Source: Balanoglossus misakiensis (Eukaryota; Animalia; Hemichordata). Taken from it: a DNA stretch of 64,000 nucleotides. Positions within the stretch are counted from its first letter, which is position 1. The number at the start of each line of letters is the position of its first letter. The stretch covers positions 6,473,849-6,537,848 of the forward strand of contig CM082597.2 in the NCBI GenBank assembly GCA_040954595.2, given 5' to 3'. A program made the translations under genes and the position numbers. The notes below the pieces were generated by a model. It saw only the letters and a list, made by a program, of their open reading frames with translations. It did not search any database and was not told where the DNA came from. This document shows, one piece after another, positions 8,121 through 59,403 of the stretch.

Positions 8121-10082
8121 TCACTGTGCAAAGACTTTGAGGCAGTCGTTGCCCCAGTCAGCAACCACTACTTCCATGTCATCTGTCACAGCGACACCTC
8201 GTGGGCTATCTAACCCATCCTCAGCTTTATCAATGCGACAGATGAATTTACCTCTGTTGTCAAATTTCTGCACATTCTTGTTTTTCTTGTCACAGACATA
8301 CAGATATCCTGCTTTATCAGCCACTATTCCTTTTGGCCAATAAAGCTTACCATCACCTTCACCAAATTCTCCAAATGCAAACATGAACTCACCATCTGCA
8401 TTATATGCTTGAATGCGATTGTTGTTCATGTCTGATACAAACACTACTCCACAAGTGTCAACAGTCAAGAACTCAGGCCCTTGAAGCTGTCCCTGTCCTG
8501 TGCCAAAACTCCCAAATGATTTGATGTACTGACAATCATGTGTGTATTTCCTGATGCAGTGACCCTCTTTGTCTGTGTCAGCCACCTTTCCATCCCAATC
8601 ACTCACATACACACTTCCATCTACAGGACTAATAGCAATTCGGGAGGGATTCTTGACTTCTTTCCCAAAGCATTTGATCAGAGACCCGTTCTCATCACTC
8701 ACAACTATTTGTTTGTTATCCCAGTCTGACATGAAGTATTCATCATCAGCTGATATTGCAACATCGTATGGTGTGAAAGGCTGTACAAACTGAGTGAATG
8801 TGAAACTTGATTTGTGATTCCCATCCCTGTCAGTGATTTGTACTCTTCTGTTACCAGCATCAGCAGTGACAAAGTTTCCGTGTCTGTTAATACTGACACC
8901 TAGAGGGCAATTGAACTGGCCACTTTTATTACCTTTACATCCAATGGTCTTCACCAAGCCTTTCTTTGTCTCTACTGACACTGAATCTTCACGAAGCAAT
9001 CCCAGCATTCCTCCATCTTTGGTCTCCTCAGCTGGCTGGAATTTCACCATGTCCACAATGGCATCAATTTCTGTCTCCATGGCGATTATTTCCTCCATGT
9101 GATGTATTGTCTCCTGCTTGGTGGCCATGATCTGGGCTGGTGTCCCATGATGCATCAGTGTTTCTATGTAGCAGCGTTGGCTTGCAATGTTGCCATGTTT
9201 CAGTTCCCACTCATCTATTAGAGCCTCCGTCTGCTTTACTCTCTGTCCATATTTTGTCTGCAGCTCTTTAATCAACTGTTTCTCCTCCCTCTGTGCCTTC
9301 TGTATGACCTTTGCTGTTTTCTGTCTCACTTTCTGTTCTTCCTCCTGGCATTCGACCAACAGTGTCTCTCTCTTCAGTTTGGCCAGTGTTGTGCTTGTCT
9401 TTGCTCCCCATTCTTTTTCTGTCACCTTACACAGCAGATCTCTCAACTGTTTGGTGTAGTCATTTGCAGCATCTTGCAGATCTGTGTTGGTGTGTTTGGG
9501 ACTTGGATGTTTGGTAATAGCACAGTCTGTACACACAATAAGCTTACAGGTCTCACAGTAGAATTTCACCACATTTTCTGGATGGACACTGCAGAAGACT
9601 TTTTGTTGCTTCAGGAGAGTTGACCATTCTGTATTTTTGTATTCATCCAGTGTCATGACCTTGTGACCTTTCATAAATTTTCTGTGCGGTTTAGTGCAGG
9701 AATCACACATATTCACACTGCAGTCGATGCAATAGTGAGTTCCTTGGTTTTCATCACATCCGTTACACACAGAAGGCTTCGAGTCACTCTCTGTAGGACG
9801 CTTTTTCAGATAAAGATCAGTCAACGAGTTGATGAAAAAGTTGACTTTCAGTTCAGTCACACCCCCACCAGGAAGCTGACATGGCGTACTGCATGTTGGG
9901 CAGTTCAGCTTACCTTTCTTTGTCACCAGTGTTGTCAGACACGACTCACAGAATGAATGGTCACATGGCAAGACTTTGGGTTTCTTGAACAGTTCCAGAC
10001 AGATCGCACAGGAGAGGAAATCCTCACCAATCTCGTTCAGAACTTTGTCTAACTGGGAACCTCCAGGATATGCTGCAGCCAT
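8121..10082 (-). CDS. TRIM-NHL E3 ubiquitin ligase copy 1 (RING-B1-B2-CC-6xNHL), 653 aa
   Basis: Uninterrupted ORF. First ATG at 10082 in strong Kozak context (aagATGG). C3HC4 RING CAIC..LPCDHSFCESC..CPTC, B-box1 CNGC..CIDC..CDSC..H..H, B-box2 CSVH..CETC..CTDC..H..H, coiled coil, then six F-x-x-P-x-G/D-[IV] NHL repeats. Confidence 0.96.
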   Translation of the reverse strand: MAAAYPGGSQLDKVLNEIGEDFLSCAICLELFKKPKVLPCDHSFCESCLTTLVTKKGKLNCPTCSTPCQLPGGGVTELKVNFFINSLTDLYLKKRPTESDSKPSVCNGCDENQGTHYCIDCSVNMCDSCTKPHRKFMKGHKVMTLDEYKNTEWSTLLKQQKVFCSVHPENVVKFYCETCKLIVCTDCAITKHPSPKHTNTDLQDAANDYTKQLRDLLCKVTEKEWGAKTSTTLAKLKRETLLVECQEEEQKVRQKTAKVIQKAQREEKQLIKELQTKYGQRVKQTEALIDEWELKHGNIASQRCYIETLMHHGTPAQIMATKQETIHHMEEIIAMETEIDAIVDMVKFQPAEETKDGGMLGLLREDSVSVETKKGLVKTIGCKGNKSGQFNCPLGVSINRHGNFVTADAGNRRVQITDRDGNHKSSFTFTQFVQPFTPYDVAISADDEYFMSDWDNKQIVVSDENGSLIKCFGKEVKNPSRIAISPVDGSVYVSDWDGKVADTDKEGHCIRKYTHDCQYIKSFGSFGTGQGQLQGPEFLTVDTCGVVFVSDMNNNRIQAYNADGEFMFAFGEFGEGDGKLYWPKGIVADKAGYLYVCDKKNKNVQKFDNRGKFICRIDKAEDGLDSPRGVAVTDDMEVVVADWGNDCLKVFAQ

Positions 10083-10368
10083 CTTTGCAGCTCGAGTCAA
10101 AATGCTTGTAATCACATAGCAACACACTGTTCAGTATAGTGTCATTAATTTTGACTGAGTTATGGGGTTTATAAAAACTTGGCAAGCCACCAAAGTTATA
10201 TGATAAATTGAATTCAGTGATTCAGCAAATACCAGTGTACCAATGTAAACTTTGACCGGGTACAGTTGACAAATACCGATATATTGAACTGAAAGTGGGA
10301 CACATCATCACATTATACCAATGAACCGTCCCAGATTTCTTGGTATACTCATTAGACATTGTGAGCTG

Positions 10369-10576
10369 TTGGTCTCTTCTTGTATTTTCACAACTCTTTG
10401 CAAACATTCATTGCAAATTATTTGTCTCTTCTTGTATTTTCACAAATCTTTGCAAACATTCATTGCAAATTATTTGTCTCTTCTTGTATTTTCACAAATC
10501 TTTGCAAACATTCATTGCAAATTATTTGTCTCTTCTTGTATTTTCACAAATCTTTGCAAACATTCATTGCAAATTA
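10369..10576. repeat. 52-bp minisatellite, 4 copies
   Basis: Unit tttgtctcttcttgtattttcacaaatctttgcaaacattcattgcaaatta; 208 bp. Confidence 0.95.
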
Positions 10577-11288
10577 TAAACATACACATTATGTCTGCAT
10601 GAAAGTTCCATCTCTGGCAACCAATTTCCCGATACAGAATTTGTGTGATGAACCATATTTCATCCTGATGGATGGTATTATACCAATAGTGAAATGTGAA
10701 TTTTTTTCTTGAAGACAACTTGGTGACAACTAACAGTATTACTATAGCAACACTACAAAAATATCCGATCATATTATTATATTTTTTGCTGCTTGTATAT
10801 GAAATTAAGTTTCATTTCATTTGGCTTCAATTGCTAGATAAACAGTTTTTGATTAAACTGTCAGTCAGCAATTTCTATTCACATCTTATCTCGGCTAGTA
10901 CAGCTTTTTTAAAACTGGCTGGGGTGTTTAATCCACCCACAAGTTGAGGTCAAAAGTTCTGGAAGTAACACAATGGACAATTCTTTACACAAAGATAACA
11001 GTTGCAAACTTTGACAGAGAATGAAAGAGTTGGCCTATATTGCAGGTTACTGTGTGAGTCAGTGGCTGATTGTATGATACAGTCTGCACGATAACCCCTT
11101 GATTAGAGCGTGTCTGGTACCAGTGATTTGATTGGCTGTTATCAAGTTATTGGCATGTTCGTCATCGTCTGACAAACCATTATTAACATGGGTAGGGGCA
11201 AACTTTCACGTTTCAAAATCAATTATATTTTTTACATTGCGTGAACAGTTTCTATCATAAATTGATATTTTATGTAAACTTTATGCGC

Positions 11289-16651: not shown

Positions 16652-18610
16652 TCACTGTGCAAAGACTTTGAGGCAGTCGTTGCCCCAGTCAGCAACCACT
16701 ACATCCATGTCATCTGTCACAGCCAAACCTAGTGGGCGATCTAACCCATCCTCAGCTTTATCAATGTGACAGATGAATTTACCTCTGTTGTCAAATTTCT
16801 GCACATTCTTGTTTTTCTTGTCACAGACATACAGATATCCTGCTTTATCAGATACTATTCCTTGTGGCCAATAAAGCTTACCATCACCTTCACCAAATTC
16901 TCCAAATGCAAACATGAACTCACCATCTGCATTAAATGCTTGAATGCGATGGTTGTTCATGTCTGATACAAACACAACTCCACAACTGTCAACAGTCAAG
17001 AACTCAGGCCCTTTGAACTGTCCCTGTCCTGTGCTAAAACTCCCAAATGATTTGATGTACTGACAATCATGTGTGTATTTCCTGATGCAGTTACCCTCTT
17101 TGTCTGTGTCAGCACTGGCCTTTCCATCCCAATCACTCACATACACACTTCCATCTACAGGACTAATAGCAATGCGGTTGGGATTCTTGACTTCTTTCCC
17201 AAAGCATTTGATCAGAGACCCATTCTCATCACTCACAACTATTTGTTTGTTATCCCAATCTGTCATGAAGTATTCATCATCAGCTGATATTGCAACATCG
17301 ACGGGTTTGAAAGGCTGTGCAAACTGAGTGAATGTGAAACTTGATTTGTATTTCCCATCCCTGTCAGTGATTTGTACTCTGTTGTTACCTGCTTCAGCAG
17401 TGACAAAGTTTCTGTGTCTGTTAATACTGATACCATTAGGGTAATTGAACTGCCCACGTTTGTTACCTTTACATCCAATGGTCTTCACCAAGCCTTTCTT
17501 TGTCTCTACTGACACTGAATCTTCACGAAGCAATCCCAGCATTCCTCTATCTTTGGTCTCCTCAGCTGGCTGGAATTTCACCATGTCCACTCTGGCATCA
17601 ATTTCTGTCTCCATGGCGATAATTTCCTCCATGTGATGTATTGTCTCCTGCTTGGTGGCCATGATCTGGGCTGGTGTCCCATGATGCATCAGTGTCTCTA
17701 TGTAGCAGCGTTGGCTTGCAATGTTGCCATGTTTCAGTTCCCACTCATCTATTAGAGCCTCCGTCTGCTTTACTCTCTGTCCATATTTTGTCTGCAGCTC
17801 TTTAATCAACTGTTTCTCCTCCCTCTGTGCCTTCTGTATGACCTTTGCTGTTTTCTGTCTCACTTTCTGTTCTTCCTCCTGGCATTCGACCATCAGTGTC
17901 TCTCTCTTCAGTTTGGCCAGTGTTGTGCTTGTCTTTGCTCCCCATTCTTTTTCTGTCACCTGACACAACAGATCTCTCAACTGTTTGGTGTAGTCATTTG
18001 CAGCATCTTGGAGATCTCTGTTGGTGTGTTTCGGACTTGGATGTTTGGTAACAGCACAAGCCGTGCATGCAGAAACCATACAGGTCTCACAGTAGACTTC
18101 GACAACATTTTCTGGATGGACACTGCAGAAGACTTTTTGTTGCTTCAGGAGAGTTGACGATTTTGTGTTGTTGTATTCGTCTAGTGTCATGACCTTGTGA
18201 CCTCTCAGAAACTTCTGGTGTGATTTTGTGCAGGAAGTGCATAGCCTTTCACTGCAGTCAATACATTGGTGAGATGCTGCATGTGCTGCACAGACACTGC
18301 ACATAGACTTGGCCTGTCCTTCGGGACCTTGTCTCTGATAAAGATCGACCAATGAGTTGATGAAAAAGTTACCTTTCAATTGAGGCACTCCACCAGCAGG
18401 AAGTTTACATACCTCACGGCATGTCGGACACTTCAACCGAGCTTTTCCTTTCACCAACTTTGTCAGACACGGCTCACAGAATGAATGGTTACATGGCAAG
18501 ACTTTGGGTTTCTTGAACAGTTCCAGACAGATCGCACAGGAGAGGAAATTCTCACCAATCTCGTTCAGAACTTTGTCTAACTCGGAACCTCCAGGATATG
18601 CTGCAGCCAT
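16652..18610 (-). CDS. TRIM-NHL copy 2, 652 aa, with a divergent RING/B-box1 segment
   Basis: Intact ORF with the same architecture. ATG at 18610. Confidence 0.96.
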   Translation of the reverse strand: MAAAYPGGSELDKVLNEIGENFLSCAICLELFKKPKVLPCNHSFCEPCLTKLVKGKARLKCPTCREVCKLPAGGVPQLKGNFFINSLVDLYQRQGPEGQAKSMCSVCAAHAASHQCIDCSERLCTSCTKSHQKFLRGHKVMTLDEYNNTKSSTLLKQQKVFCSVHPENVVEVYCETCMVSACTACAVTKHPSPKHTNRDLQDAANDYTKQLRDLLCQVTEKEWGAKTSTTLAKLKRETLMVECQEEEQKVRQKTAKVIQKAQREEKQLIKELQTKYGQRVKQTEALIDEWELKHGNIASQRCYIETLMHHGTPAQIMATKQETIHHMEEIIAMETEIDARVDMVKFQPAEETKDRGMLGLLREDSVSVETKKGLVKTIGCKGNKRGQFNYPNGISINRHRNFVTAEAGNNRVQITDRDGKYKSSFTFTQFAQPFKPVDVAISADDEYFMTDWDNKQIVVSDENGSLIKCFGKEVKNPNRIAISPVDGSVYVSDWDGKASADTDKEGNCIRKYTHDCQYIKSFGSFSTGQGQFKGPEFLTVDSCGVVFVSDMNNHRIQAFNADGEFMFAFGEFGEGDGKLYWPQGIVSDKAGYLYVCDKKNKNVQKFDNRGKFICHIDKAEDGLDRPLGLAVTDDMDVVVADWGNDCLKVFAQ

Positions 18611-18971: not shown

Positions 18972-19283
18972 TTTGTCTCTTCTTGTATTTTCACAAATCT
19001 TTGCAAACATTCATTGCAAATTATTTGTCTCTTCTTGTATTTTCACAAATCTTTGCAAATATTCATTGCAAATTATTTGTCTCTTCTTGTATTTTCACAA
19101 ATCTTTGCAAACATTCATTGCAAATTATTTGTCTCTTCTTGTATTTTCACAAATCTTTGCAAACATTCATTGCAAATTATTTGTCTCTTCTTGTATTTTC
19201 ACAAATCTTTGCAAACATTCATTGCAAATTATTTGTCTCTTCTTGTATTTTCACAAATCTTTGCAAACATTCATTGCAAATTA
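18972..19283. repeat. 52-bp minisatellite, 6 copies
   Basis: 312 bp = 6 x 52. Confidence 0.95.
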
Positions 19284-20003
19284 TGAACATACATGTACAC
19301 ATTATGTCTGCATGAAAGTTCCATCTCTGGCAACCAATTTCCCAATACAGAATTTGTGTGAGGAACCATATTTCATCCTGATAGATGGTATTATACCAAT
19401 AGTGAAATTTGATTTTTTTTTCTTGAAGAGAACTTGGTGGCAACTGACAGTGTTACTATAGCAACACTACAAAAACATCAGATCATATTATTATATTTTT
19501 TGCTGCTTGTATATGAAATTAAGTTTCATTTCATTTGGCATCAATTGCTAGATAAACAGTTTTTTATTAAACTGTTAGTCAGCAATTTCTATTCACTTCT
19601 TATCTCGGCTAGTACAGCTGTTTTTAAACTGGCTGGGGTGTTGAATCCACCCACAAGTTGAGGTCAAAAGTTCTGGAAGTATAAACACAATGGACAATTC
19701 TTTACACAAAGATAACAGTTGCAAACTTTGACAGAGAATGAAAGAGTTGGCCTATATTGCAGGTTACTGTGTGAGCACTGGCTGATTGTATGATACAGTC
19801 TGCACGATAATCCCTCGATTAGGGCGTGTCTGGTACCAGTGATTTGATTGGCTGTTATCGAGTTATTGGCATGTTCGTCATCGTCTGACAAACCATTTTT
19901 TACATGAGTAGGGGCAAACTTTCACGTTTCAAAATCAATTATTTGTTTTACATCGCGTGAACAGATTCTATCATAAATTGCTTTTTTTGTTAACTTTATG
20001 CGC

Positions 20004-20365: not shown

Positions 20366-21955
20366 TGTCCTCTCACTGACCCATTTTCTGAATTTTTATT
20401 TTATTTTTTGTTTTTCTATTTGGCATGGTCTTGCCATGAATTGAAAGAAATGACTGTGAACCAGATTTGAATAGGTTCCTCAAATAACCACCATATGCAT
20501 ACTTACTGAATTGGTAGAACATGTAATATTTATCTTCAATGGTTTACATGGAACACCATAGATAATAACACCAAGAGATTTATCTATCGAAACTAATTAA
20601 CTTTCCAATGAAGAAAAACGAATGGAGAGAAAAAAATGCTGAGTAGGAACTAGCCTTGACAAAAATGCCTAATTTGTAACCGCGCGCACTTGTCGATCGA
20701 TCGTATACAACAGCGGCTGTGAACCCTGTTGTGACTGGTTCTGGAGGCTCAGTTAAAAAACACGGCCCTAACACGCAGAGTTACGACTGATCTGTGATTA
20801 AAAAAAATGCATTGTCATACGTTTACCTCTAAATGCAACCCGAACTAAAGTACAATTAGCTAAGAACACCGAGGAGATACTTCCGTATTAGTCTGCCTCA
20901 CATGAATGAGCAAATGATCTGCCGTAGACAGACACTCACTATGCATGACCTGCCAGCCTTTCAACCAATAGACGCAGCTCTGTGGTATCACATGACATTA
21001 TTATTGAGTTGATCTGCACACGTGAGAATTTCCCGCCATCTCACCAGACTTGACATTTACGCCCATTTTTTTACCATATTGGGGGCATATCTGCCAACGC
21101 AAAACTTTAAAGGGAGTGACAAATGACATGCTGCATTCAATAAAATAAAACTGGATTGGACAATGCGGCGCTAAATGCTCACATGACCGAAATCCGGCGT
21201 GTGTCAATCAATGGTTTTCTATGCATGTCTTCAAACTCACGCGTTTCAAAACAAAATCTGTGTAGGTGGCAAATCGAGAGAGTTGCATTTTGAAGCTGAA
21301 AGATCCCTGGAGTCAACTATGTCTGGGTGTAGGGGTTTGCACTCTCCTAATGGCTCATACGTTCGAATAAAATGGACTCGAAAATAATAGCATTTTCTAT
21401 TGTTTTCCTCTTATTTATATTATACTACAGGCACATCTTACCATTTGACTGCACATTTGACTATTTTGGAATGAAAGGTAATATCAGAAGGGCGTATTTT
21501 TCATACAAGATTGCCGATATGATTTTTAGACCAAAAATCTCAACATATCAAAGAGAGGCCTGTAAATCCCCCGGAAAATGCACTCTCTATTTGGTCATGC
21601 GGTGAGGACTCCTACGGAACGGGCACCATCGTAGGACCCGCTTACCGGGACAGTCCATGACTTCCCGAACACGATAGTTGCAGCCTTTTTTTGCACAGAG
21701 TTGACGCCAATCCTGCTAAATCCCCCCACAAATGCTCCACCTCCAGAAATCAAATGGTTCTTATATCTGCAACCCCAGCAAGGGAATTTCAATTTTTGTC
21801 CTTTGGATTGAAGGTTCAATTGACTCAAGTAATTGCAAAAAAAATCACAGTCACTCCACAAAGATGTATAGCGTTAATTCTCTAGAACTCCAACTTTCAA
21901 GTATTAACTGGGGTTTCTTATAAAAATATAAACATATGAAACGTAATAGAATTAT

Positions 21956-24115
21956 GAAAACCTGTTTATTCACCACATGAATTTTGCACTTAAATGTATC
22001 AGCTATTAGTCCACACAAACTAAACATGATTACAGTGTATTCTTGGTTATTTAAAAAAACTGAATGATTTCACCAAAATTTGTGGTCCACTAACAAATTT
22101 ATGTCAAGGCCACTGTTGACCTGATAATAAACCCCTCATCAAGAAATCTACAGGAATTTCAGCTGGTTACAAAAAAATGTTGCTAGCTGTTTGGTCGTAA
22201 ATTAAAGTTAAGTGGTCGAATGTTCATGTGATATGTACTGAAGTCGACAGAAACACAGTGTCTTGGTGATTACATTAACATACAATAGGTCTCAAATCAG
22301 TCAACCAAACAACTCAGTAATGTTCATTGTCCAGTTTTGTGAGTTATAAGTGTCTATCAATCGTCAACCAAATAATCAATAATTTGCATGTTTGTTGTCC
22401 AGATTATTTATGAGTTATAAGTGTATATCGTCAAAACGAAAGTCAAGAAAAATAAAGTGAGTACAACACGTTGCAAATAATGAATTCTATGATTTCCTGT
22501 AAAATGACAAAAAGTTGTTGAAACAGGAAAATTTGATTAAAGTCCATGAAAGTAGAAAACCACTGATTACAGTCAACACATCACATGTAATCTCAAAAAC
22601 TAAAGCTCAAAAACTAAAATGGATTAAAAAACAGTACCATACACACGTTAGGATCTGAAGAGGATAAGTGGTTTTAACCCTTTCTCCACCATGGTTTGGT
22701 CTTACTCCATTGTTCTCCAATGGTAGTGTTGGACCTTTACACAGTGAAATAGGGGTGGAAGGGTTTTAAGGAAGTACTCTAAATTGTAGTAAAGAAAATC
22801 TGAAAACATATTTTGAAATTATTTATCAACAGACATATTTATAACACTCAGCTATGAATTCATCATTCATCTACGTGTGATAACATTGTTCCACAAAAAA
22901 TAACATGGTGGAAATGTTCAAGAAATGGAGTGATCTAAAAAACACTGGTCATGTCATATAGCTGAATTATAAACTGTTCTTAAAAAAACATGAAAAATCA
23001 AGAAAAAAGTTGTCTGTTTACATCAAAATATCAAAGAAAAACTGTTTATTCACCACATGTATATAATTTTGCACTTAAAATGTATCAGCTGTTAGTCCAC
23101 ACAAACTAAACATGATTACAATGTATTCTTGGGTATTTAAAAAAATACTGAATGATTTCACCAAAAATTGTGGTCCACTAACAAATTTATGTCAAGGCCA
23201 CTGTTGACCTGATAATAAACCCCTCATCAAGAAATCTACAGGAATTTAAATTGGTTACAAAAAAATGTTGCTGGCTGTTTGGTCGTAAAATAAAGTTAAG
23301 TGGTCCAATGTTCATGTGATAAGTACTGAAGTCGACAGAAATAGTGTCTTGGTGATGACATTAACATACAATAGGTCTCAAAACAGTCAACCAAACAACT
23401 CAGTAATGTTCATTGTCCAGATTTGTGAGTTATAAGTGTCCATCGATCGTCAACCAAATAATCAATAATTTGCACGTTTGTTGTCCAGATTATTTATGAG
23501 TTATAAGTTTATATCTTCAAAACCAAAGTCAAGTAAAATAAAGTGAGTACAAAACACGTTGCAAATAATGAATTCTATGGTTTCCTGTAAATTGACAAAA
23601 AGTTGTTAAAACAGAAACAAATGATATGAGTTCATGAAAATAGAAAACCACTGATTACAGTCAACACATTACATGTAATCTCAAAAACTAAAGCTCAAAA
23701 ACTAAAATGGATTAAAAAACAGTACATACACACATTAAGATCTGAAGAGACTAAGTTGTTTTAACCCTTTCTCCACCATGGTTTGGTCTAACTCCATTGT
23801 TCTCCAATGGCAGAGTTGGACCTTTACACAGTGAAATGGGGGTGAAAGGGTTAAGGAAGTACTCTGAATTGTAGTAAAGAAAATCTGAAAACATATTTTG
23901 AAATTATTTATCAACGGACATATTTATAACACTCAGCTACGAATTCATCATTCATCTACGTGTGATAACATTGTTCCACAAAAAATAACATGGTGGAAAT
24001 GCTCAATAAATGTAATGGACTAAAAAACCACTGGTCATGTTATAGAGCTGAATTCTACATGTGTCTACTCTTGAAAAATCGAGAAAAAAATTGTCTGTTT
24101 ACATCTAAATATCCA
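21956..24115. repeat. About 1.08-kb tandem duplication of the distal 3' flank of copy 3
   Basis: gaaaa(c/a)ctgtttattcaccacat starts at 21956 and again at 23036, each followed by the same block. Confidence 0.9.
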
Positions 24116-25982
24116 AGACTTAGTGGCACTGAATAAAACTGAAGATTGATGTCCAGAACTGACAGATACGAGTGAATGTTCAGATGTTTCTTTGTTGATC
24201 TGTTGTGACATAAAATTGTTGTGTTAAAGCCCCAGTAATGCTTACGTTTGGCTGTTTTTTTTCTGTATTTTTCTCTCATGCATCAAATCCAGTTTCTTGT
24301 TCTTCTCTGGAGAGCTTTATGAAATGTTCATTTTTTAGCTTCTCAACAAAGCCTGTATATGAGTAACAGCCACTGTTATTGTCGACAAATGAATTGATGT
24401 CCTGACTTTAATTTATATTTCAACAATAACAATGCTGATTACTATAAAATAGCTGTGTTGAAAAACGAAAAAAACTGAGAAATTATTTATGTCTCACAGA
24501 GAAGAACAAGAAACCACAGTTCTAACTGAAAACAATAATATTGATCAGATAGCCCAAAGTTGGAAGTTACTGGGGTTTTAATTGTTTTGTGATACCTGTC
24601 CTGATTTCGGTCTGACCCCAACTGGGTGTAGTCAGATTTGTGTCGGTGAAAAGTCACTGTAGATTTTTTGACTGACAAAAATTGTACAGTAACAAGGAGG
24701 TCATGACATACTCAATAAACAACATGTTATCAGTGTCACCTTGGCAACAGTGGAATTGTTAGTCAGTTAACTGTTAATGTAGAAACTGGACAACAGATAT
24801 ACTTTGCTTTAATTATGAACCATGTAAAATGTTCACAATTTGTTATAGGCAAAATGCAAAATTCATGATAACTTCATAGAAAGTACTGATATTTTTGTCA
24901 GTAAATTCTTTTTTTGCTGCCACTGTTGACTGTGACATAGTCCCTTCATGAAATACAAATTTTTTCAAAGATACTTTTAAACTTAAAAAAACACACCACA
25001 AAATATTTAAATTGTGTAATCTTGGTTATACTCAGAACCCAAAATTCAAAGTCTCTATATGCAGTTCAATAAAAAATATCAGCTGATGTGAATACTGTAT
25101 GATTTGCATGTCCCCCTTTGGAAAGATTTGTCGTCTCAGAAAAAAAACTATAAGTTTGCCATCATCTTTCCAATCGGGCTGACATGAGAATCCAAGAGAT
25201 TTTTCTTTTGGGAGAAATCTGTCTATTCCAACAGAAATGTCAACTCTAGTTGTGAGAGTGTTGTATGCACATGGTCTCTGCAGAAGAATAGGAACCTCAG
25301 GCAACTAGTTTGCCGTCATAAGTCATTCTACAGTTGGTTTCATGTGCGTGACTTCAGATGCAATCTGAAGTTGAGCGATACATTAGTCATCGTCTCAAGT
25401 TTTTTTTGTGACAGCAAGTGTCTGCTTGTTTTGTTGTTGTTTATATCAACTGCAGTTTGTTGTTGAAACCCCTACAGCATATGATGAAATGTTCAGCCTG
25501 TATGTGTACAGATAGTATTATTATTGCTGAAAATTGAATTGAATTCAATTCCTTGATCAACAATAATAATGATGCACATGTCTAGGTTATTTCAAGAAAC
25601 TGAACAGTGGCCATTTTAGAATGGTATTATAGTGTGGAATAAGAACTATAGTTCATATTTACAGACAGAAATACTGAAAAAACAAAAAGTGGGCCTTAAT
25701 CTACAAACCAATGTGGCATATATGCATCCAGGTTCTGCCATCACCTTCACATGTAAGCCTTATTTCAGTGAAATACAGTAAAATCTGTCTAAACCAAACT
25801 CAGTCTGATCGAGAAACCTGTCTATACCGAACACTCTTTCCAGTGCCCTTCACATAAAACCACATGTTGAAAGACCCTCTGTAAACCAGACACCTCTGCA
25901 AAGCGAACAATATTCTCACTCCCATTGGTGTCTGGTTTATAGACAGGTTTCACTACAGTTGATACATTGAGATGTGACACTT

Positions 25983-27944
25983 TCACTGTGCAAAGACTTT
26001 GAGGCAGTGATTGCCCCAGTCAGCAACCACTACTTCCATGTCATCTGTCACAGCTACACCAGTTGGGCGATCTAACCCATCCTCAGCTTTATCAATGCGA
26101 CAGATGAATTTACCTCTGTTGTCAAATTTCTGCACATTCTTGTTTTTCTGATCACTGACATACAGATATCCTGCTTTATCAGCCACTATTCCTGTTGGCC
26201 AATAAAGCTTACCATCACCTTCACCAAATTCTCCAAATGCAAACATGAACTCACCATCTGCATTAAATGCTTGAATGCGTTTGTTGTTCATGTCTGATAC
26301 AAACAATACTCCACAACTGTCAACAGTCAAGAACTCAGGCCCTCTAAGCTGTCCCAGTCCCCTGCCCAAACTCCCAAATGATTTGATGTACTGACAATCG
26401 TGTGTGTATTTCCTGATGCAGTGACCCTCTTTGTCTGTGAGAGAATCATCACCCTTTCCATCCCAATCACTCACATACACACTTCCATCTACAGGACTAA
26501 TAGCAAGGCGGTAGGGATTCTTGACTTCTTTCCCAAAGCATTTGATCAGAGACCCATTCTCATCACTCACAACTATTTGTTTGTTATCCCAGTCTGTCAT
26601 GAAGTATTCATCATCAGCTGATATTGAAACATCGCGTGGTGTGAAAGGCTGTGCAAACTGAGTGAATGTGAAACTTGATTTGTAATTCCCATCCCTGTCA
26701 GTGATTTGTACTCTGTTGTTACCACGATCAGCAGTGACAAAGTTTCTGTGTCTGTTGATACTGACACCTAGAGGGCGATTGAACTGCCCACCTTCGTTAC
26801 CTCGACACCCAATGGTCTTCACCAAGCCTTTCTTTGTCTCTACTGACACTGAATCTTCACGAAGCAATCCCAGCATTCCTCCATCTTTGGTCTCCTCAGC
26901 TGGCTGGAATTTCACCACGTTCACTCTGGCATCAATTTCTGTCTCCATGGAAATAATGTCCTCCATGTGATGTATTGTCTCCTGCTTGGTGGCCAGGATC
27001 TGGGCTGGTGTCCCATGATGCATCAGTGTCTCTATGTAGCAGCGTTGGCTTGCAATGTTGCCATGTTTCAGTTCCCACTGATCTATTAGAGCCTCCGTCT
27101 GCTTTACTCTCTGTCCATATTTTGTCTGCAGCTCTTCAATCAACTGTTTCTCCTCCCTCTGTGCCTTCTGTATGACCTTTGCTGTTTTCTGTCTCACTTT
27201 CTGTTCTTCCTCCTGGCATTCGACCAACAGTGTCTCTCTCTTCAGTTTGGCCAGTGTTGTGCTTGTCTTTGCTCCCCATTCTTTTTCTGTCACCTGACAC
27301 AGCAGATCTCTCAACTGTTTGGTGTAGTCATTTGCAGCATCTTGGAGATCTGTGTTGGTGTGTTTGTTGTGTTTGGTAACAGCACAAGCCGTGCATGCAG
27401 AAACCATACAGGTCTCACAGTAGAATTTCACAACATTTTCTGGATGGACACTGCAGAAGACTTTTTGTTGCTTCAGGAGAGTTGACGATTCTGTATTTTT
27501 GTATTCATCCAGTGTCATGACCTTATGACCTTTCATAAATTTTCTGTGCGGTTTAGTGCAGGAATCACACATATTCACACTGCAGTCGATGCAATAGTGA
27601 GTTCCTTCGTTTTCCTCACAGCCGTTACACACAGAAGGCTTTGAGTCACTCTCTGTAGGACGCTTTTTCAGATAAAGATCTGTCAACGAGTTGATGAAAA
27701 AGTTGACTTTCAGTTCAGTCACACCCCCACCAGGAAGCTGACATGGCGTACTGCATGTTGGGCAGTTCAGCTTACCTTTCTTTGTCACCAGTGTTGTCAG
27801 ACACGACTCACAGAATGAATGGTCACATGGCAAGACTTTGGGTTTCTTGAACAGTTCCAGACAGATCGCACAGGAGAGGAAATCCTCACCAAGCTCGTTC
27901 AGAACTTTGTCTAACTCGGAACCTCCAGGATATGCTGCAGCCAT
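25983..27944 (-). CDS. TRIM-NHL copy 3, 653 aa
   Basis: Intact ORF, RING-B1-B2-CC-6xNHL. ATG at 27944. Confidence 0.96.
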   Translation of the reverse strand: MAAAYPGGSELDKVLNELGEDFLSCAICLELFKKPKVLPCDHSFCESCLTTLVTKKGKLNCPTCSTPCQLPGGGVTELKVNFFINSLTDLYLKKRPTESDSKPSVCNGCEENEGTHYCIDCSVNMCDSCTKPHRKFMKGHKVMTLDEYKNTESSTLLKQQKVFCSVHPENVVKFYCETCMVSACTACAVTKHNKHTNTDLQDAANDYTKQLRDLLCQVTEKEWGAKTSTTLAKLKRETLLVECQEEEQKVRQKTAKVIQKAQREEKQLIEELQTKYGQRVKQTEALIDQWELKHGNIASQRCYIETLMHHGTPAQILATKQETIHHMEDIISMETEIDARVNVVKFQPAEETKDGGMLGLLREDSVSVETKKGLVKTIGCRGNEGGQFNRPLGVSINRHRNFVTADRGNNRVQITDRDGNYKSSFTFTQFAQPFTPRDVSISADDEYFMTDWDNKQIVVSDENGSLIKCFGKEVKNPYRLAISPVDGSVYVSDWDGKGDDSLTDKEGHCIRKYTHDCQYIKSFGSLGRGLGQLRGPEFLTVDSCGVLFVSDMNNKRIQAFNADGEFMFAFGEFGEGDGKLYWPTGIVADKAGYLYVSDQKNKNVQKFDNRGKFICRIDKAEDGLDRPTGVAVTDDMEVVVADWGNHCLKVFAQ

Positions 27945-31587: not shown

Positions 31588-31596
31588 AATAGTAAT

Positions 31597-41164: not shown

Positions 41165-42072
41165 TAAACATACACATTGTGTCTGCATGAAAGTTCCATC
41201 TTTGGCAACCAATTTCCCAATACAGAATTTGTGTGAGGAACCATATTTCATCCTGATGGAAGATATTATACCAATAGTGAAATGTGAATTTTTTTTCTTG
41301 ATAACAACTTGGTGGCAACTGACAGTGTTACCATAGCAACACTACAAAAACATCAGACCATATTATTTTTTTTGCTGCTTGTATATGAAATTAAGTTTCA
41401 TTTCATTTGGCTTCATTTCCTAGATAAACAGTTTTTGATTTAACTGTCAGTCAGCAATTTCTATTCACTTCTTATCTCGGCTAGTACAGCTGTTTTTAAA
41501 CTGGCTGGGGTGTTGAATCCACCCACAAGTTGAGGTCAAAAGTTCTGGAAGTAACACAATGGACAATTCTTTACACAAAGATAACAGTTGCAAACTTTGA
41601 CAGAGAATGAAAGAGTCGGCCTATATTGCAGGTTACTGTGTGAGTCAGTGGCTGATTGTATGATAACAATTCTTTCTACACTTTGTGTGGAATAAATCTG
41701 TTGTATTGCTTCTTAGGGGAGATTAACCATTTGATTTCTGGGGGTGGGGATTTGGTATGCCAGCAAATTTGTTTTGTTCACAGTTAGAACAATTACATTG
41801 TATTAGGACCCATATCATGTATATTGCATGTTACTGTGTGAGTCAGTGGCTGATTGTATGATACAGTCTGCACGATAACCCCTCGATTAGGGCGTGTCTG
41901 GTACCAGTGATTTGATTGGCTGTTATCGAGTTATTGGCATGTTCGTCATAGTCTGACAAACCATTTTTTACATGAGTAGGGGCAAACTTTCACGCGTCAA
42001 AATCAATTATTTTTTTTACATTGCGTGAACAGTTTCTATCATAAATTGATATTTTTTGTAAACTTTATGCGC

Positions 42073-44580: not shown

Positions 44581-44735
44581 TAAGATCAGGACGGCGAATG
44601 TTTTCAGGGTGGGGGGGGGGGGGCATCATTTTTTGGTCCTGGGTAAAAGGGGGGGGGGGGGGTCTGCCTGATTTTGAAAACCGATGACAAAAACTTGCTG
44701 CCCCCCTCCCCCAGCCGTAAAAACTGAACGGTCCC
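44581..44735. mobile_element. Single terminus of a G-rich MITE, possibly PIF/Harbinger-like, in a unit-specific segment
   Basis: Ends ...aaaactgaacggtccc|tta where array homology resumes. Only one end is seen and the left boundary is uncertain. Confidence 0.35.
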
Positions 44736-44921
44736 TTATGTCTGCTCCCCAGGAAGTTAATTTCAAATTTTGTCCTTTGGACTGAAGATTCAATTGTCTC
44801 ATGTGATTGCAAAATACAATCACAGTCACTCCAAAAGTGTTAATTCTCTAGTAACTCCAACTTTCAAGTTTTAACTGGGGTTTCTTATAAAAAATAAACA
44901 TATGAAACATAATAGAATTAT

Positions 44922-47085
44922 GAAAACCTGTTTATTCACCACATCAATTTTGCACAACAAATGTATCAGCTGTTAGTCCACACAAACTAAACATGATTAC
45001 AGTGTATTCTTGGTTATTTAAAAAAAATTGAATTATTTCACCAAAAATTGTGGTCCACTAACAAATTTATGTCAAGGCCACTGTTGACCTGATAATAAAC
45101 CCCTCATCAAGAAATATACAGGAATTTAAACTGGTTACAAAAAATTTTTGCAAGCTGTTTGGTCGTCAATTAAAGTTAAGTTGTCCAATGTTCATGTGAT
45201 AAGTACTGAAGTCAACAGAAATAGTGTCTTGGTGATTACATTAACATACAATAGGTCTCAAATCAGTCAACCAAACAACTCAGTAATGTTCATTGTCCAG
45301 ATTTGTGAGTTATTAGTGTCCATCGATCGTCAACCAAATAATCAATAATTTGCATGTTTGTTGTCCAGATTATATATAAAGTTATAAATGTATATCGTCA
45401 AAAACAAAGTCAAGAGAAATAAAGTGAGGACAACACGTTGCAAATAATGAATTCTATGGTTTCCTGTAAAATGAAAAAAAGTTGTTGAAACAGGAAATTC
45501 TGATTAAATTTCATGAAAGTAGAAAACCACTGATAACAGTCAACACATTACATGTAATCTCAAAAACTAAAGCTCAAAAACTAAAATGGATTAAAAAACA
45601 GTATCTACACACATTAGGATCTGAAGAGGCTAAGTTGTTTTAACCCTTTCTCCACCATGGTTTGGTCTTACTCCATTGTTCTCCAATGGTAGTGTTGGAC
45701 CTTTACACAGTGAAATGGGGGTGGAAGGGTTTTAAGGAAGTACTCTAAATTGTAGTAAAGAAAATCTGAAAACATATTTTGAAATTATTTATCAACAGAC
45801 ATATTTATAACACTCAGCTATGAATTCATCATTCATCTACGTGTGATAACATTGTTCAACGAAAAATAACATGGTGGAAATGTTCAATAAATGTAGTGAT
45901 CTAAAAAACACTGGTCATGTCATATAGCTGAATTATAAACTGTTCTTTAAAAAAACATGAAAAATCAAGAAAAAAGTTGTCTGTTTACATCAAAATATCA
46001 AAGAAAACCTGTTTATTCACCACATCAATTTTGCACAACAAATGTATCAGCTGTTAGTCCACACAAACTAAACATGATTACAATGTATTCTTGGTTATTT
46101 AAAAAAAATACTGAATGATTTCACAAAAAATTGTGGTCCACTGACAAATTTATGTCAAGGCCACTGTTGACCTGATAATAAACCCCTCATCAAGAAATCT
46201 ACAGGAATTTAAACTGGTTACAAAAAAATGTTGCTAGCTGTTTGGTCATAAAATAAAGTTAAGTGGTCGAATGTTCATGTGATAAGTACTGAAGTCGACA
46301 GAAACACAGTGTCTTGGTGATTATACTAACATACAATAGGTCTCAAAACAGTCAACCAAACAACTCAGTAATGTTCATTGTCCAGATTTGTGAGTTATTA
46401 GTGTCCATCGATCGTCAACCAAATAATCAATAATTTGCATGTTTGTTGTCCAGATTATTTATGAGAGTTATAAGTGTTATCGTCAAAAACAAAGTCAAGA
46501 AAAATAAAGTGAGTAAAACACGTTGCAAATAATGAATTCTATGGTTTCCTGTAATATGACAAAAAGTTGTTAAAACAGGAAAATTTGATTAAAGTTCATG
46601 AAAGTAGAAAACCACTGATTACAGTCAACACATTACATGTAATCTCAAAAACTAAAGCTCAAAAACTAAAATGGATTAAAAAACAGTACCATACACACAT
46701 TAGGATCTGAAGAGGCTAAGTTGTATTAACCCTTTCTCCACCATGGTTTGGTCTAATTCCATTGTTCTCCAATGGTAGTGTTGGACCTTTACACAGTGAA
46801 ATGGGGGTGAAAGGGTTAAGGAAGTACTCTGAATTGTAGTAAAGAAAATCTGAAAATATATTTTGAAATTATTTATCAACAGACATATTTATAACACTCA
46901 GCTATGAATTCATCATTCATCTAAGTGTGATAACATTGTTCCACAAAAAATAACATGGTGGAAAAGTTCAATAAATGTAGTGGACTAAAAAATCACTGGT
47001 CCTGTTATAGAGCTGAATTCTACATGTGTCTTTAAAAACATTAGAAATAAAGAAAAAAGTTGTCTGTTTACATCAAAATATCAAA
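44922..47085. repeat. About 1.08-kb tandem duplication of the distal 3' flank of copy 5
   Basis: The block starts at 44922 and again at 46003. The junction (catcaaaatatcaaagaaaa) is the same as in copy 3. Confidence 0.9.
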
Positions 47086-48959
47086 GACTTAGTGACACTG
47101 AATAAAATTGAAGATTGATGTCCAGAACTGACAGATACGAGTGAATGTTCAGATGTTTCTTTGTTGATCTGTTGTGACATAAAATTTTTGTGTTAAAGCC
47201 CCAGTAATGCTTATGTTTGGAATTTTTTTTCTGTTATTTTCTCTCATGCATCAAATCCAGTTTCTTGTTCTTCTCTGGAGAGCTTTATGAAATGTTCATT
47301 TTTTAGCTTCTCAACAAAGACTGTATATGAGTAACAGCCACTGTTATTGTCGACAAATGAATTGATGTCTTGACTTTTATTCATATTTCAACAATAACAA
47401 TGCTGATTACTACAAAATAGCTGTTTTGAAAAACCCAAAACTGAGAAATTATTTATGTCTCACAGAGAAGAACAAGAAGCCACAGTTGATACTGAAAACA
47501 ATAATATTGAGAAGATAGCCCAAAGTTGGAAGTTACTGGGGTTTTAATTGTTTTGTGATACCTGTCCTGATTTCGGTCTGACCCCAACTGGGTGTAGTCA
47601 GATTTGTGTCGGTGAACAGTCATTGTAGATTTTTTTACAGACAAAAATTGTACAGTAACAAGGAGGTCATGACATACTCAATAAACAACATGTTATCAGT
47701 GTCACCTTGGCATCAGTGGAATTGTTAGTCAGTTAACTGTTAATGTAGCAATTGGACAACAGATATACTTTGCATTAATTATGAACCATGTAAATGTTCA
47801 TAATATGTTACAGACAAAATGCAAAACTCTTAATAACTTTGTAAAAAGTTTTTTTTTGCTGCCACTGTTGACTGCGACATAGTCCCTTCATGAAATACAA
47901 ATCTTTTCAAAGATACTTGTAAACCTAAAAACCCACACCACAAAACTGTTTTACGTAATTTTGGTTATACTCAGAACCCCAAAGTTCAAAGTCTCTATCT
48001 GTAGTTCAATAAAAAAAATATCAGCTGATGTGAATACTGTTTGATTTGCATGTCCCCCCTTTGGAAAGATTTGTCATGTCAGGAAAAAAAGTACAAGTTT
48101 GCTGCCATCTTTCCAATCAGGCTGACATGGACACAAGTGGGTAAAACATTTCCTCCTTCAAATCTGGGGGTTCTCTCATAAGAATCCAAGAGATGTCTCT
48201 TTTGGGAGAAATCTGTCTATTCCAACAGAAATGTCAACTATAGTTGTGAGAGTATTGTATGCACATGGTCTCTGCAGAAGAATAGGAACCTCAGGCAACC
48301 AGTTTGCCGTCATAAGTCATTCTACAGTTGGTTTCATGTGCGTGACTTCTGATGCAATCTGAAGTTGAGCGATACATTAGTCATCATCTCAAGTTTTTTT
48401 TGTGACAGCAAGTGTCTGCTTGTTTTGTTGTTGTTTTTATCAACTGCAGTTTGTTGTTGAAACCTCTACAGCATATGATGAAATGTTCAGCCTATATGTG
48501 TACAGATAGCATTATTATTGCTGAAAATTGAATTGAATTCAATTCCTTGATCAACAATAATAATGATGCACATGTCTAGGTTCTTTCAACAAACTGAACA
48601 GTGGCCATGTTAGAATGGTACTTTAGTGTGGAATAAGAACTCTAGTTCATATTTACAGACAGAAATATTGAACAAAACAAATAGTGGGCCTTAATCTACA
48701 AACCAATGTGTCTGCCATCACCTTCACATGTAAGCCTTATTTCAGTGAAATACAGTAAAATCTGTCTAAACCAAACTCAGTCTGATCGGGAAACCTGTCT
48801 ATACCGAACACTCTTTCCAGTGCCCTTCACATAAAACCACATGTTGAAAGACCCTCTGTAAACCAGACAACTCTGCAAAGCGAACAATATTCTCACTCCC
48901 TTTGGTGTCTGGTTTATAGACAGGTTTCACTACAGTTGATACATTGAGATGTGACACAT

Positions 48960-50912: not shown

Positions 50913-51274
50913 CTTTGCAGCTCGAGTCAAAATGCTTGTAATCACATAGCAACACACTGTTCAGTATAGTGTCATTAATTTTGACTGAGTTATGGGGTTT
51001 ATAAAAACTTGGCAAGCCACCGAAGTCACATGATTAATTGAATTCAGTGATTCAGCAAATACCAGGGTCTACCTAGTACCGGCTGAGTACCTGAGAGTTG
51101 AGGTCAAAAGGTTAAACTTGAACACAATGAATCACTGAGAAGAGAATGAAATGTAAACTTATACCAGGTACAGTTGACAAATACCGATATATTGAACTGA
51201 AAGTGGGACACATCATCACATTATACCAATGAACCGTCCCAGATTTCTTGGTACTCATTAGACATTGTGAGCTG

Positions 51275-51430
51275 TTTGTCTCTTCTTGTATTTTGACAAA
51301 TCTTTGCAAACATTCATTGCAAATTATTTGTCTCTTCTTGTATTTTCACAAATTATTGCAAACATTCATTGCAAATTATTTGTCTCTTCTTGTATTTTCA
51401 CAAATTATTGCAAATATCCATTGCTAATTA
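51275..51430. repeat. 52-bp minisatellite, 3 copies
   Basis: 156 bp = 3 x 52. Confidence 0.93.
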
Positions 51431-52146
51431 TAAATATACACATTATGTCTGCATGAAAGTTCCATCTCTAGCAACCAATTTCCCAATTCAGAATTTGTGT
51501 GAGGAACCATATTTCATCATGATGGATGGTATTATACCAATAGTGAAATGTGAATTTTTTTTCTTGAAGACAACTTGGTGGCAACTGACAGTGTTACCAT
51601 AGCAACACTACAAAAACATCAGACCATACTATTATATTTTTTGCTGCTTGTATATGAAATTAAGTTTCATTTCATTTGGCTTTATTTGCTAGATAAACAG
51701 TTTTTGATTTAACTATCAGTCAGCAATTTCTATTCACTTCTTATCTCGGCTAGTACAGCTGTTTTTAAACTGACTGGGGTGTTGAATCCACCCACAAGTT
51801 GAGGTCAAAAGTTCTGGAAGTAACACAATGGACAATTCTTTACACAAAGATAACAGTTGCAAACTTTGACAGAGAATGAAAGAGTTGGCCTATATTGCAG
51901 GTTACTGTGTGAGTCAGTGGCTGATTGTATGATACAGTCTGCACGATAACCCCTCGATTAGGGCGTGTCTCGTACCAGTGATTTGATTGGCTGTTATCGA
52001 GTTATTGGCATGTTCGTCATCGTCTGACAAACCATTTTTTTTACATGAGTAGGGGCAAACTTTTTACGTTTCAAAATCAATTATTTTTTTTACATTGCGT
52101 GAACAGTTTCTATCATAAATTGATATTTTTTGTAAACTTTATGCGC

Positions 52147-57447: not shown

Positions 57448-59403
57448 TCACTGTGCAAAGACTTTGAGGCAGTGATTGCCCCAGTCAGCAACCACTACTT
57501 CCATGTCATCTGTCACAGCTACACCAGATGGGCGATCTAACCCATCCTCAGCTTTATCAATGCGACAGATAAATTTACCTTTGTTGTCAAATTTCTGCAC
57601 ATTGTTGTTTTTCTTGTCACAGACATACAGATATCCTGCTTTATCAGCCACTATTCCTTCTGGCCAATAAAGCTCACCTTCACCAAATTCTCCAAATGCA
57701 AACATGAACTCACCATCTGCATTAAATGCTTGAATGCGATTGTTGTTCATGTCTGATACAAACACTACTCCGCAACCGTCAACAGTCAAGAACTGAGGCC
57801 CTCTGAACTGTCCCTGTCCTGTGCCAAAACTCCCAAATGATTTGATGTACTGACAATCACGTGTGTATTTCCTGATGCAGTGACCCTCTTTGTCTGTAAG
57901 GGAATAATCGGCCACTCCATCCCAATCACTCACATACACACTTCCATCTACAGGACTAATAGCAATTCGGGAGGGATTCTTGACTTCTTTCCCAAAGTAT
58001 TTGATCAGAGACCCATTCTCATCACTCACAACTATTTGTGTGTTATCCCAGTCTGTCATGAAGTATTCATCATCAGCTGATATTGCAACATCAATGGGTG
58101 TGAAAGGCTGTGCAAACTGAGTGAATGTGAAACTTGATTTGTGATTCCCATCCCTGTCAGTGATTTGTACTCTCTTGTTACCAGCATCAGCAGTGACAAA
58201 GTTTCTGTGTCTGTTAATACTGATACCTTTAGGGCCATAGAACTGGCCACCTTTGTTACCTTGACATCCAATGGTCTTCACCAAGCCTTTCTTTGTCTCT
58301 ACTGACACTGAATCTTCACGAAGCATTCCCAGCATTCCTCCATCTTTGGTCTCCTCAGCTGGCTGGAATTTCACCATGTTCACTCTGGCATCAATTTCTG
58401 TCTCCATGGCGATTATTTCCTCCATGTGATGTATTGTCTCCTGCTTGGTGGCCATGATCTGGGCTGGTGTCCCATGATGCATCAGTGTTTCTATGTAGCA
58501 GCGTTGGCTTGCAATGTTGCCATGTTTCAGTTCCCACTCATCTATTAGAGCCTCCGTCTGCTTTACTCTCTGTCCATATTTTGTCTGCAGCTCTTTAATC
58601 AACTGTTTCTCCTCCCTCTGTGCCTTCTGTATGACCTTTGCTGTTTTCTGTCTCACTTTCTGTTCTTCCTCCTGGCATTCGACCATCAGTGTCTCTCTCT
58701 TCAGTTTGGCCAGTGTTGTGCTTGTCTTTGCTCCCCATTCTTTTTCTGTCACCTTACACAGCAGATCTCTCAACTGTTTGGTGTAGTCATTTGCAGCATC
58801 TTGCAGATCTGTGTTGGTGTGTTTGTTGTGTTTGGTAACAGCACAAGCCGTGCATGCAGAAACCATACAGGTCTCACAGTAGACTTCGACAACATTTTCA
58901 GGATGGACACTGCAGAAGACTTTTTGTTGCTTCAGGAGAATTGACCATTCTGTATTTTTGTATTCATCCAGTGTCATGACCTTGTGACCTTTCATAAATT
59001 TTCTGTGCGGTTTAGTGCAGGAATCACACATATTCACACTGCAGTCCATGCAATAGTGAGTTCCATCGTTTTCTTCACATCCGTTGCACACAGAAGGCTT
59101 TGAGTCACTCTCTGTAGGACGCTTTTTCAGATAAAGATCGGTCAACGAGTTGATGAAAAAGTTGACTTTCAGTTCAGTCACACCCCCACCAGGAAGCTGA
59201 CATGGCGTACTGCATGTTGGGCAGTTCAGCTTACCTTTCTTTGTCACCAGTGTTGTCAGACACGACTCACAGAATGAATGGTCACATGGCAAGACTTTGG
59301 GTTTCTTGAACAGTTCCAGACAGATCGCACAGGAGAGGAAATCCTCACCAAGCTCGTTCAGAACTTTGTCTAACTCGGAACCTCCAGGATATGCTGCAGC
59401 CAT
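57448..59403 (-). CDS. TRIM-NHL copy 6, 651 aa
   Basis: Intact ORF. ATG at 59403. In-frame indels in NHL loops (DWDGVADYSLTD; GEGELYW). Confidence 0.96.
   Translation of the reverse strand: MAAAYPGGSELDKVLNELGEDFLSCAICLELFKKPKVLPCDHSFCESCLTTLVTKKGKLNCPTCSTPCQLPGGGVTELKVNFFINSLTDLYLKKRPTESDSKPSVCNGCEENDGTHYCMDCSVNMCDSCTKPHRKFMKGHKVMTLDEYKNTEWSILLKQQKVFCSVHPENVVEVYCETCMVSACTACAVTKHNKHTNTDLQDAANDYTKQLRDLLCKVTEKEWGAKTSTTLAKLKRETLMVECQEEEQKVRQKTAKVIQKAQREEKQLIKELQTKYGQRVKQTEALIDEWELKHGNIASQRCYIETLMHHGTPAQIMATKQETIHHMEEIIAMETEIDARVNMVKFQPAEETKDGGMLGMLREDSVSVETKKGLVKTIGCQGNKGGQFYGPKGISINRHRNFVTADAGNKRVQITDRDGNHKSSFTFTQFAQPFTPIDVAISADDEYFMTDWDNTQIVVSDENGSLIKYFGKEVKNPSRIAISPVDGSVYVSDWDGVADYSLTDKEGHCIRKYTRDCQYIKSFGSFGTGQGQFRGPQFLTVDGCGVVFVSDMNNNRIQAFNADGEFMFAFGEFGEGELYWPEGIVADKAGYLYVCDKKNNNVQKFDNKGKFICRIDKAEDGLDRPSGVAVTDDMEVVVADWGNHCLKVFAQ

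Follow-up and report, generated by a model that had tools for sequence, protein, structure and literature searches.

Why should single codons differ in nearly every copy of a gene whose copies are otherwise almost identical? The question arises from a 64,000-nucleotide stretch of the genome of the hemichordate Balanoglossus misakiensis (assembly GCA_040954595.2, contig CM082597.2, forward-strand positions 6,473,849 to 6,537,848), hereafter called the window, which carries a tandem array of TRIM-NHL genes. We propose that diversifying selection has very probably acted on the predicted binding face of the NHL propellers encoded there. Comparison of the window with itself resolved six tandem units of 8.5-11.7 kb each that are 91-95% alike and run from ~5096 past the right window edge. 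Each unit contains one long minus-strand reading frame encoding a protein of 650-653 amino acids, and all six copies are intact, with intron-free coding regions in one coding exon each (positions are those of the window):

8121..10082, minus strand: TRIM-NHL copy 1, 653 amino acids; RING, two B-boxes, coiled coil, and predicted six-bladed NHL; no filamin domain
16652..18610, minus strand: TRIM-NHL copy 2, 652 amino acids; its RING/B-box-1 part is a divergent tract
25983..27944, minus strand: TRIM-NHL copy 3, 653 amino acids
37702..39663, minus strand: TRIM-NHL copy 4, 653 amino acids
48960..50912, minus strand: TRIM-NHL copy 5, 650 amino acids
57448..59403, minus strand: TRIM-NHL copy 6, 651 amino acids

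An array that is 91-95% self-similar over kilobases could in principle owe its differences to assembly or consensus noise in a collapsed repeat, but we regard this as hardly credible. The six frames are open, all eight coding indels keep the frame (among short flank indels, 21 of 100 are multiples of three), and the variation is restricted to structurally matching codons and recurs in the paralogs of other species.

Hypervariable codons share one register of the NHL blades

A sequence-only reading of the window had singled out one codon each in blades 2 and 5 and had taken their changing first and second positions, beside a fixed wobble base, for repeated selection of amino-acid changes. The codons lie where it had placed them, in frame on the minus strand: the six copies read TAC, GTC, CGC, TTC, TCC, and ATT in blade 2 (alignment column 439) and AAA, CAA, ACA, GAA, ATA, and GAA in blade 5 (column 587). 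Both encode the residue directly after a conserved proline (Pro+1), which takes 5, 6, 4, 3, 5, and 5 amino acids among the six copies in blades 1-6, respectively; the Pro-1 residue is also variable in blades 1 and 6. These features are given below for copy 1, with amino acids in the order of copies 1 to 6 and posteriors from the codon site models:

8124..8957, minus strand: NHL propeller (alignment columns 376-656), the part very probably under diversifying selection
8907..8909, minus strand: blade-1 Pro-1 codon (C,Y,R,G,G,G), in the register of LIN41 Arg564
8901..8903, minus strand: blade-1 Pro+1 codon (L,N,L,E,H,K), posterior 1.0
8847..8858, minus strand: blade-1 loop after the conserved Asp, with columns 409 (A,A,R,A,I,A) and 412 (R,N,N,K,K,K), from the alignment and site models
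8766..8768, minus strand: blade-2 Pro+1 codon (Y,V,R,F,S,I), posterior 1.0; in the other copies at 17300, 26634, 38353, 49602, and 58093
8643..8645, minus strand: blade-3 Pro+1 codon (S,N,Y,A,A,S), posterior 0.95-0.99
8472..8474, minus strand: blade-4 Pro+1 codon (E,E,E,D,E,Q), which varies although the site models did not select it
8331..8333, minus strand: blade-5 Pro+1 codon (K,Q,T,E,I,E), posterior 0.99
8205..8207, minus strand: blade-6 Pro-1 codon (S,R,R,E,E,R), posterior 0.84-1.0
8199..8201, minus strand: blade-6 Pro+1 codon (R,L,T,S,Q,S), posterior 1.0

All four columns with at least five amino acids are Pro+1 columns, as are five of the seven with at least four, and Pro+1 accounts for 6 of the 281 NHL columns. 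The probability of finding four out of four at Pro+1 is 6e-8, or ~3e-6 after multiplication by 47 registers.

The fixed wobble base survived less well. It holds in blade 5, where the third base is invariant, but in blade 2 this base is C in five copies and T in one, and as a rule it fails, since the third base is invariant in just three of the nine hottest codons (columns 392, 480, and 587). Third positions are invariant in 229 of 274 NHL columns (84%) anyway; an invariant third base is thus the expected background state, and fixed wobble by itself was rejected as evidence. The evidence for selection is the excess of states at codon positions 1 and 2 and where that excess falls, not the wobble.

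Diversity-generating retroelements introduce adenine-directed changes that turn AAY into NNY codons, and columns 392, 439, and 480 are indeed all NNC or NNT, while column 587 is all NNA. A targeted mutagenesis mechanism of this kind is nevertheless a very improbable source of the variation. The window contains no template-like extra copy of NHL DNA and no reverse transcriptase, the nine spare reading frames scanned gave no Pfam match, the hot codons are spread across 700 bases, and the third base varies at columns 394, 629, and 631 and, where fixed, is in its background state.

The control that the sequence-only reading had proposed, namely whether multi-state variation is also found at silent or non-coding sites, came out in favor of selection. 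As the genes have no introns, the flanking DNA of the same six units served as comparator, restricted to columns with few gaps and a local identity of at least 60%. At least five states were observed in 4 of 274 gap-free NHL codons versus 0 of 3478 overlapping non-coding triplets. Similarly, none of the 82 four-fold sites in the NHL part has three or more states, versus 9 of 274 first and 5 of 274 second codon positions. When the local-identity filter was dropped, three-state non-coding columns still numbered only 8 of 2009 and 9 of 1715.

Three sequencing runs, which come from one sample and one study, possibly the window's own source, and are therefore not independent, contained 131, 90, and 2 variant pieces over 901 bases. 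For the 91 bases around the blade-2 codon, 28 and 24 pieces were found in these runs, with alternative letters at the first two codon positions but none at the third. Such pieces hint at further copies or alleles in the reads and give no copy number.

The hot registers are predicted to lie on the upper face

In zebrafish LIN41, 14 residues on the upper face of the NHL propeller are described as contacting RNA (PMC5908797). Aligned with an offset of 415, all 14 fall in five registers, Pro-2, Pro-1, Pro+1, Asp+1, and Asp+2. At least three amino acids occur at 11 of the 30 array positions in these registers; the same is true of only 1 of 55 positions in lower-face loops (p 2e-5) and, among the NHL columns outside the 30, of 8 of 251. 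The proportion of nonsynonymous differences (pN) is 0.24 at the LIN41-contact registers and 0.58 at Pro+1, compared with a proportion of synonymous differences (pS) of 0.084 for the NHL part. The hot registers are predicted to be on the upper face, by repeat register relative to the LIN41-RNA structure rather than by coordinates, and this placement is consistent with the strand limits of the structural model described below.

Two other features of the propeller were noted. Indel-rich variable loops follow the conserved Asp in blades 3 and 5 (columns 499-504, copy 1 ~8577-8588, and columns 601-606); these loops, which were excluded from the masked tests, likely belong to the same variable face. 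Tryptophans occupy top-face registers amid the variable sites at columns 496, 585, 646, and 454, three of them invariant and one nearly so, and could form the fixed aromatic core of a pocket.

Five other paralog groups (7 Ptychodera, 4 Glandiceps, 9 Saccoglossus, and 14 and 6 other sequences) were compared at the protein level only; they comprise 40 of 108 homologs, picked by species, contig, or rank. In all five groups the top face varies more than the bottom (0.56-0.68 versus 0.11-0.31, p at most 5e-5). A codon-level replicate was sought by scanning metagenomes for the DNA of a second paralog group, and of 19 pattern matches 0 were confirmed.

Selection tests among recombining copies

Using our own implementation of codon site models, we obtained a likelihood ratio of 83.3 for M2a versus M1a over the whole NHL part. 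With 18 indel-near columns masked, the ratio was 75.5, and M8 versus M8a gave 74.8; allowing double and triple changes reduced the NHL ratio to 44.6. Omega was estimated at 15-19 for 3.5-3.9% of NHL sites. The RING/B-box part showed no selection signal (ratio 0.0 for five copies, with copy 2 left out), and a coiled-coil ratio of 5.4 was rejected as selection, falling inside the recombining null. The ratio of nonsynonymous to synonymous substitution rates (dN/dS) for the whole gene is below 1 in all 15 copy pairs (0.42-0.78), and the signal is therefore site-specific.

Recombination among the copies is heavy. Of the pairs among 71 informative sites, 44% are incompatible with one tree, and the trees of the six copies differ between gene regions, with a borderline local clustering of compatible sites (p 0.056). 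Flanks differ by ~0.04, less than silent NHL sites (~0.08). The longest exchange candidate is found in copy 2:

18167..18490, minus strand: divergent RING/B-box-1 tract of copy 2 (~codons 41-150), boundaries approximate

At the amino-acid level, this tract is 58-59% identical to the other copies, whereas those copies reach 94-98% identity to copy 1 over the same stretch; the DNA of the tract is ~29% different from the other five copies, and the remainder of the gene is alike. A conversion or recombination event involving a more distant paralog, located outside the window, seems to have produced it. A shorter divergent tract was noticed in B-box 2 of copy 1 (~9500-9545), and copies 4 and 5 have in common a coiled-coil stretch (columns 225-240) with nine base changes, all altering amino acids.

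Heavy recombination inflates the site-model test, and nominal p-values are void. Neutral simulations were run in which recombination was modelled as a new tree every 3 or 10 codons. The maximum ratio in 38 such simulations was 29.6, with none above the observed 75.5, and one further run gave 12.3. Four codons with five amino acids were never reached in 120 neutral runs in each of four settings, and in 1 of 120 and 7 of 120 runs under the strongest rate variation. Random differences in rate between sites leave the shared register of the hot codons unexplained.

These results bear on an explanation without positive selection, in which an unconstrained face is combined with short gene-conversion tracts from divergent paralogs and multi-base mutations. 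The 44% site-pair conflict, the long tract in copy 2, the inflation of the test by recombination, and the raised pS at top-face codons speak for it, as does an improvement of the neutral model by 23 log units with multi-hit terms. However, imported tracts would show at silent and non-coding sites, where three states at four-fold sites and five in triplets are absent. The observed ratio of 75.5 also lies far above the recombining maximum and is still 44.6 when multi-hit terms are included, and hot spots placed at random would not share one register in five blades. We consider this explanation improbable, and it is already disfavored by these data.

Several points weigh against selection on the face. 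The sample consists of six copies from one assembly, and empirical-Bayes posteriors in our implementation ignore parameter error. Among the neutral recombining simulations, 29 of 38 passed the nominal 5% cut, and under the most extreme rate variation four five-amino-acid codons arise in 7 of 120 runs, while a looser count, seven codons at which four amino acids occur, is reached in as many as 47 of 120. For the 30 codons of the top face, pS is 0.161 (interval 0.07-0.25) and overlaps the pN interval of 0.155-0.332, although the rise comes partly from path-averaging that assigns silent steps to multi-hit codons; silent variation at most two codons from hot sites is slightly raised as well (5 of 28 versus background, p 0.10). 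The LIN41 register test was not blind, the Pro+1 pattern having been known before the registers were taken, and the lower-face loops are Asp/Gly turns that may be constrained, which makes them an imperfect control. In the five paralog groups, relaxed constraint would give a similar protein-level picture. Even so, repeated selection for amino-acid change, as the sequence-only reading had proposed, is supported jointly by the site models, the recombining neutral simulations, the non-coding and four-fold control, and the clustering in a single register, and we hold diversifying selection on the predicted binding face with high confidence.

Protein architecture, relatives, and probable ligand

A Pfam scan of three of the six copies identified the RING domain PF00097 above cut-off in all three, as well as the B-box PF00643 and NHL repeats PF01436. 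All eight ligands of the C3HC4 RING are invariant across the six copies, and the Cys/His residues of both B-boxes are invariant across 66 sequences. The AlphaFold2 model of copy 1 has a coiled-coil helix at residues 202-312 and an NHL block at residues 381-653 with a predicted local distance difference test (pLDDT) score of 88-98. In a Foldseek search, this model matched the TRIM2/TRIM3 NHL domains with a template modelling score (TM-score) of 0.90-0.92 and a root-mean-square deviation of ~2 Å, and its best solved matches were the TRIM2, TRIM3, Thin, and TRIM71 propellers (0.85-0.92). The NHL part is accordingly predicted to fold as a six-bladed propeller. A RING, B-boxes with a coiled coil, and a C-terminal six-bladed NHL domain are all present, which identifies the proteins as TRIM-NHL members with putative E3 ligase activity. 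The scan found no filamin domain (PF00630), a trait of TRIM2/3/71 that is not required for the family, and no B30.2/SPRY domain in the three copies; the proteins are therefore not members of the finTRIM/TRIM5 group, being at most alike in action.

The top 53 of 108 homologs are hemichordate proteins from Ptychodera flava, Glandiceps talaboti, and Saccoglossus kowalevskii, automatically named 'TRIM2/3/71-like', and a filamin domain is listed for most hemichordate relatives of the array proteins. The closest relative, Ptychodera flava protein P0001 (63% identity), likewise lacks filamin, and an NHL tree built from 66 sequences places it as sister to the six copies with support 0.999. By themselves, these relatives make an acorn worm the likely source of the array, whose own species, with 63% as the best identity, is not represented among them at the protein level.

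The NHL domain is acidic, with a net charge of -5 to -8. At the eight positions of the basic LIN41 pocket (zebrafish Arg564, 581, 611, 676, 707, 752, 770, and Lys628), only one to three are Lys or Arg in any copy, and two are mostly Asp or Glu. With its acidic charge and the loss of most basic contacts, the domain seems more likely to have a protein as its ligand than a LIN41-type RNA hairpin. Mei-P26, however, is reported to bind RNA although it lacks 11 of 15 Brat contact residues (PMC9070667), so the missing LIN41 residues do not exclude RNA binding.

The nature of the ligand matters for a further alternative, in which selection on the face is real and its targets are the host's own. These could be products of transposons or other selfish elements, germline RNAs or proteins, or self/non-self markers, with each copy regulating or degrading its own target. 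LIN41, Brat, and Mei-P26 are described as developmental RNA regulators whose RNA-binding surface changes fast between subfamilies (PMC5908797, PMC9070667), and the Mei-P26 case leaves an RNA ligand possible. On the other side, five to six states per codon among copies ~8% apart at silent sites imply a very fast-changing target, and the acidic charge and scarcity of basic LIN41 contacts also weigh against host targets. We view this alternative as unlikely, though a serious contender.

Repeats within the array and neighboring DNA

A 52-base minisatellite lies upstream of each gene, with 4, 6, 9, 22, 3, and 2 copies, and a 181-base repeat near the minisatellites is present in 2, 2, 4, 2, 5, and ~1 copies. 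These numbers are read as signs of active unequal exchange. Units 3 (21731-23037, 23036-24118) and 5 (44733-46004, 46003-47087) each carry ~1.1 kb of their 3' flank twice, in head-to-tail order. The array seems to continue beyond the window edge, as the 3' flank of a probable seventh unit stands at the right end; this flank carries a unique insertion of ~730 bases with short terminal inverted repeats (~63026-63758).

10372-10577, 18972-19284, 28306-28774, 40021-41165, 51275-51431, 59765-59869: 52-base minisatellites
62301..64000, minus strand: 3' flank of a probable seventh unit, matching 5096-5821 and 5813-6056

On the plus strand between 755 and 3900 are six short exons (755, 1528, 2315, 2855, 3161, and 3772), each with a calcium-binding-type epidermal growth factor (EGF)-like motif behind an AG acceptor. 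They appear to belong to a neighboring multi-exon gene, and no EGF-like exon of this type was found within the array. An element of ~360 bases with internal inverted symmetry occurs in two oppositely oriented copies (904-1263 and 4746-5101) that are 82-85% alike, the second at the left edge of the array; it is probably a small non-autonomous transposon.

Relation to known TRIM systems and proposed role

The array proteins have the same domain order as the TRIM-NHL family (Marin subfamily C: TRIM2, TRIM3, TRIM32, TRIM56, TRIM71/LIN41, Brat, Mei-P26, and Thin/Abba). They differ from it in lacking filamin, in their single coding exon, recent tandem arrangement, and hypervariable top face, and in an acidic NHL domain. 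The NHL genes fall in a TRIM group for which one-to-one conservation between human and mouse is described, whereas the fast-evolving group bears SPRY and is absent from invertebrates, a filamin-related subgroup being the sole invertebrate expansion noted there (PMC2533329). The finTRIM and TRIM5alpha genes are reported as clustered lineage-specific paralogs whose RING/B-box parts are nearly identical and in which positive selection centers on the C-terminal recognition domain (PMC2657112). The array resembles them in its clustered, lineage-specific paralogs with closely similar RING/B-box parts and in positive selection concentrated on a C-terminal binding surface, but it has an NHL propeller instead of B30.2/SPRY and belongs to an invertebrate, and an antiviral role would be assigned here by analogy.

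TRIM56 is a single gene in mammals. Its antiviral action is reported to need E3 activity and the NHL-like C-terminal part, by which it binds viral RNA (PMC6623546); the array differs in its many copies, full NHL domain, and variable acidic face. Among hemichordate 'TRIM2/3/71-like' proteins, paralog groups vary on the same face as the array. Tandem TRIM expansions have been suggested as an answer to external aggression (PMC3503706), an expanded TRIM-like family is reported in a brittle star (PMC11310086), and selected sites are listed for bat TRIM45 and TRIM56 (PMC10145180). The LIN41 study describes rapid evolution of the NHL surface between subfamilies, in an available text that does not use the term 'positive selection' (PMC5908797). 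Our search of the mostly open-access literature, supplements aside, found no study of codon-level selection on NHL faces in invertebrate TRIM arrays; gene-family tables in supplements may list this expansion already.

TRIM proteins form dimers through their coiled coil, select the target with the C-terminal domain, and transfer ubiquitin by means of the RING. With moderate confidence, we favor the explanation that this tandem TRIM-NHL array has a binding face that varies under repeated selection for new specificities against fast-changing foreign targets, which are then tagged with ubiquitin. Coiled-coil dimers would present two propellers, each copy would bind a different ligand variant, and the RING end would mark the bound foreign target. 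Outside the face, unequal crossing-over and gene conversion would make the genes and their flanks uniform, while selection would maintain the differences on the face itself. Given diversifying selection on the face, pathogens are a likely driver, because of the analogy to finTRIM, TRIM5alpha, and TRIM56.

That duplicated TRIM genes come under positive selection on their binding surface is already familiar. However, TRIM-NHL proteins have mostly been seen as conserved regulators of development, and TRIM arms races are known mainly from vertebrate SPRY/B30.2 domains. An NHL array with selection on one blade register is a candidate invertebrate intracellular recognition family in which the exact residues can be named, and the pattern may be general, since variation on this face recurs in three other hemichordates and two further paralog groups. 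More tentatively, and with rather less confidence than in the explanation above, hemichordates and other invertebrates lacking SPRY-type TRIM expansions may run a large repertoire of intracellular receptors for pathogens that is built on the NHL propeller. The variable codons, one in each blade, would ring the pocket in the manner of an antibody paratope, gene conversion would shuffle blades and RING modules between copies, and the RING would mark the invader for destruction. If true, such a repertoire would be an invertebrate counterpart of TRIM5 and finTRIM, reached with a different domain.

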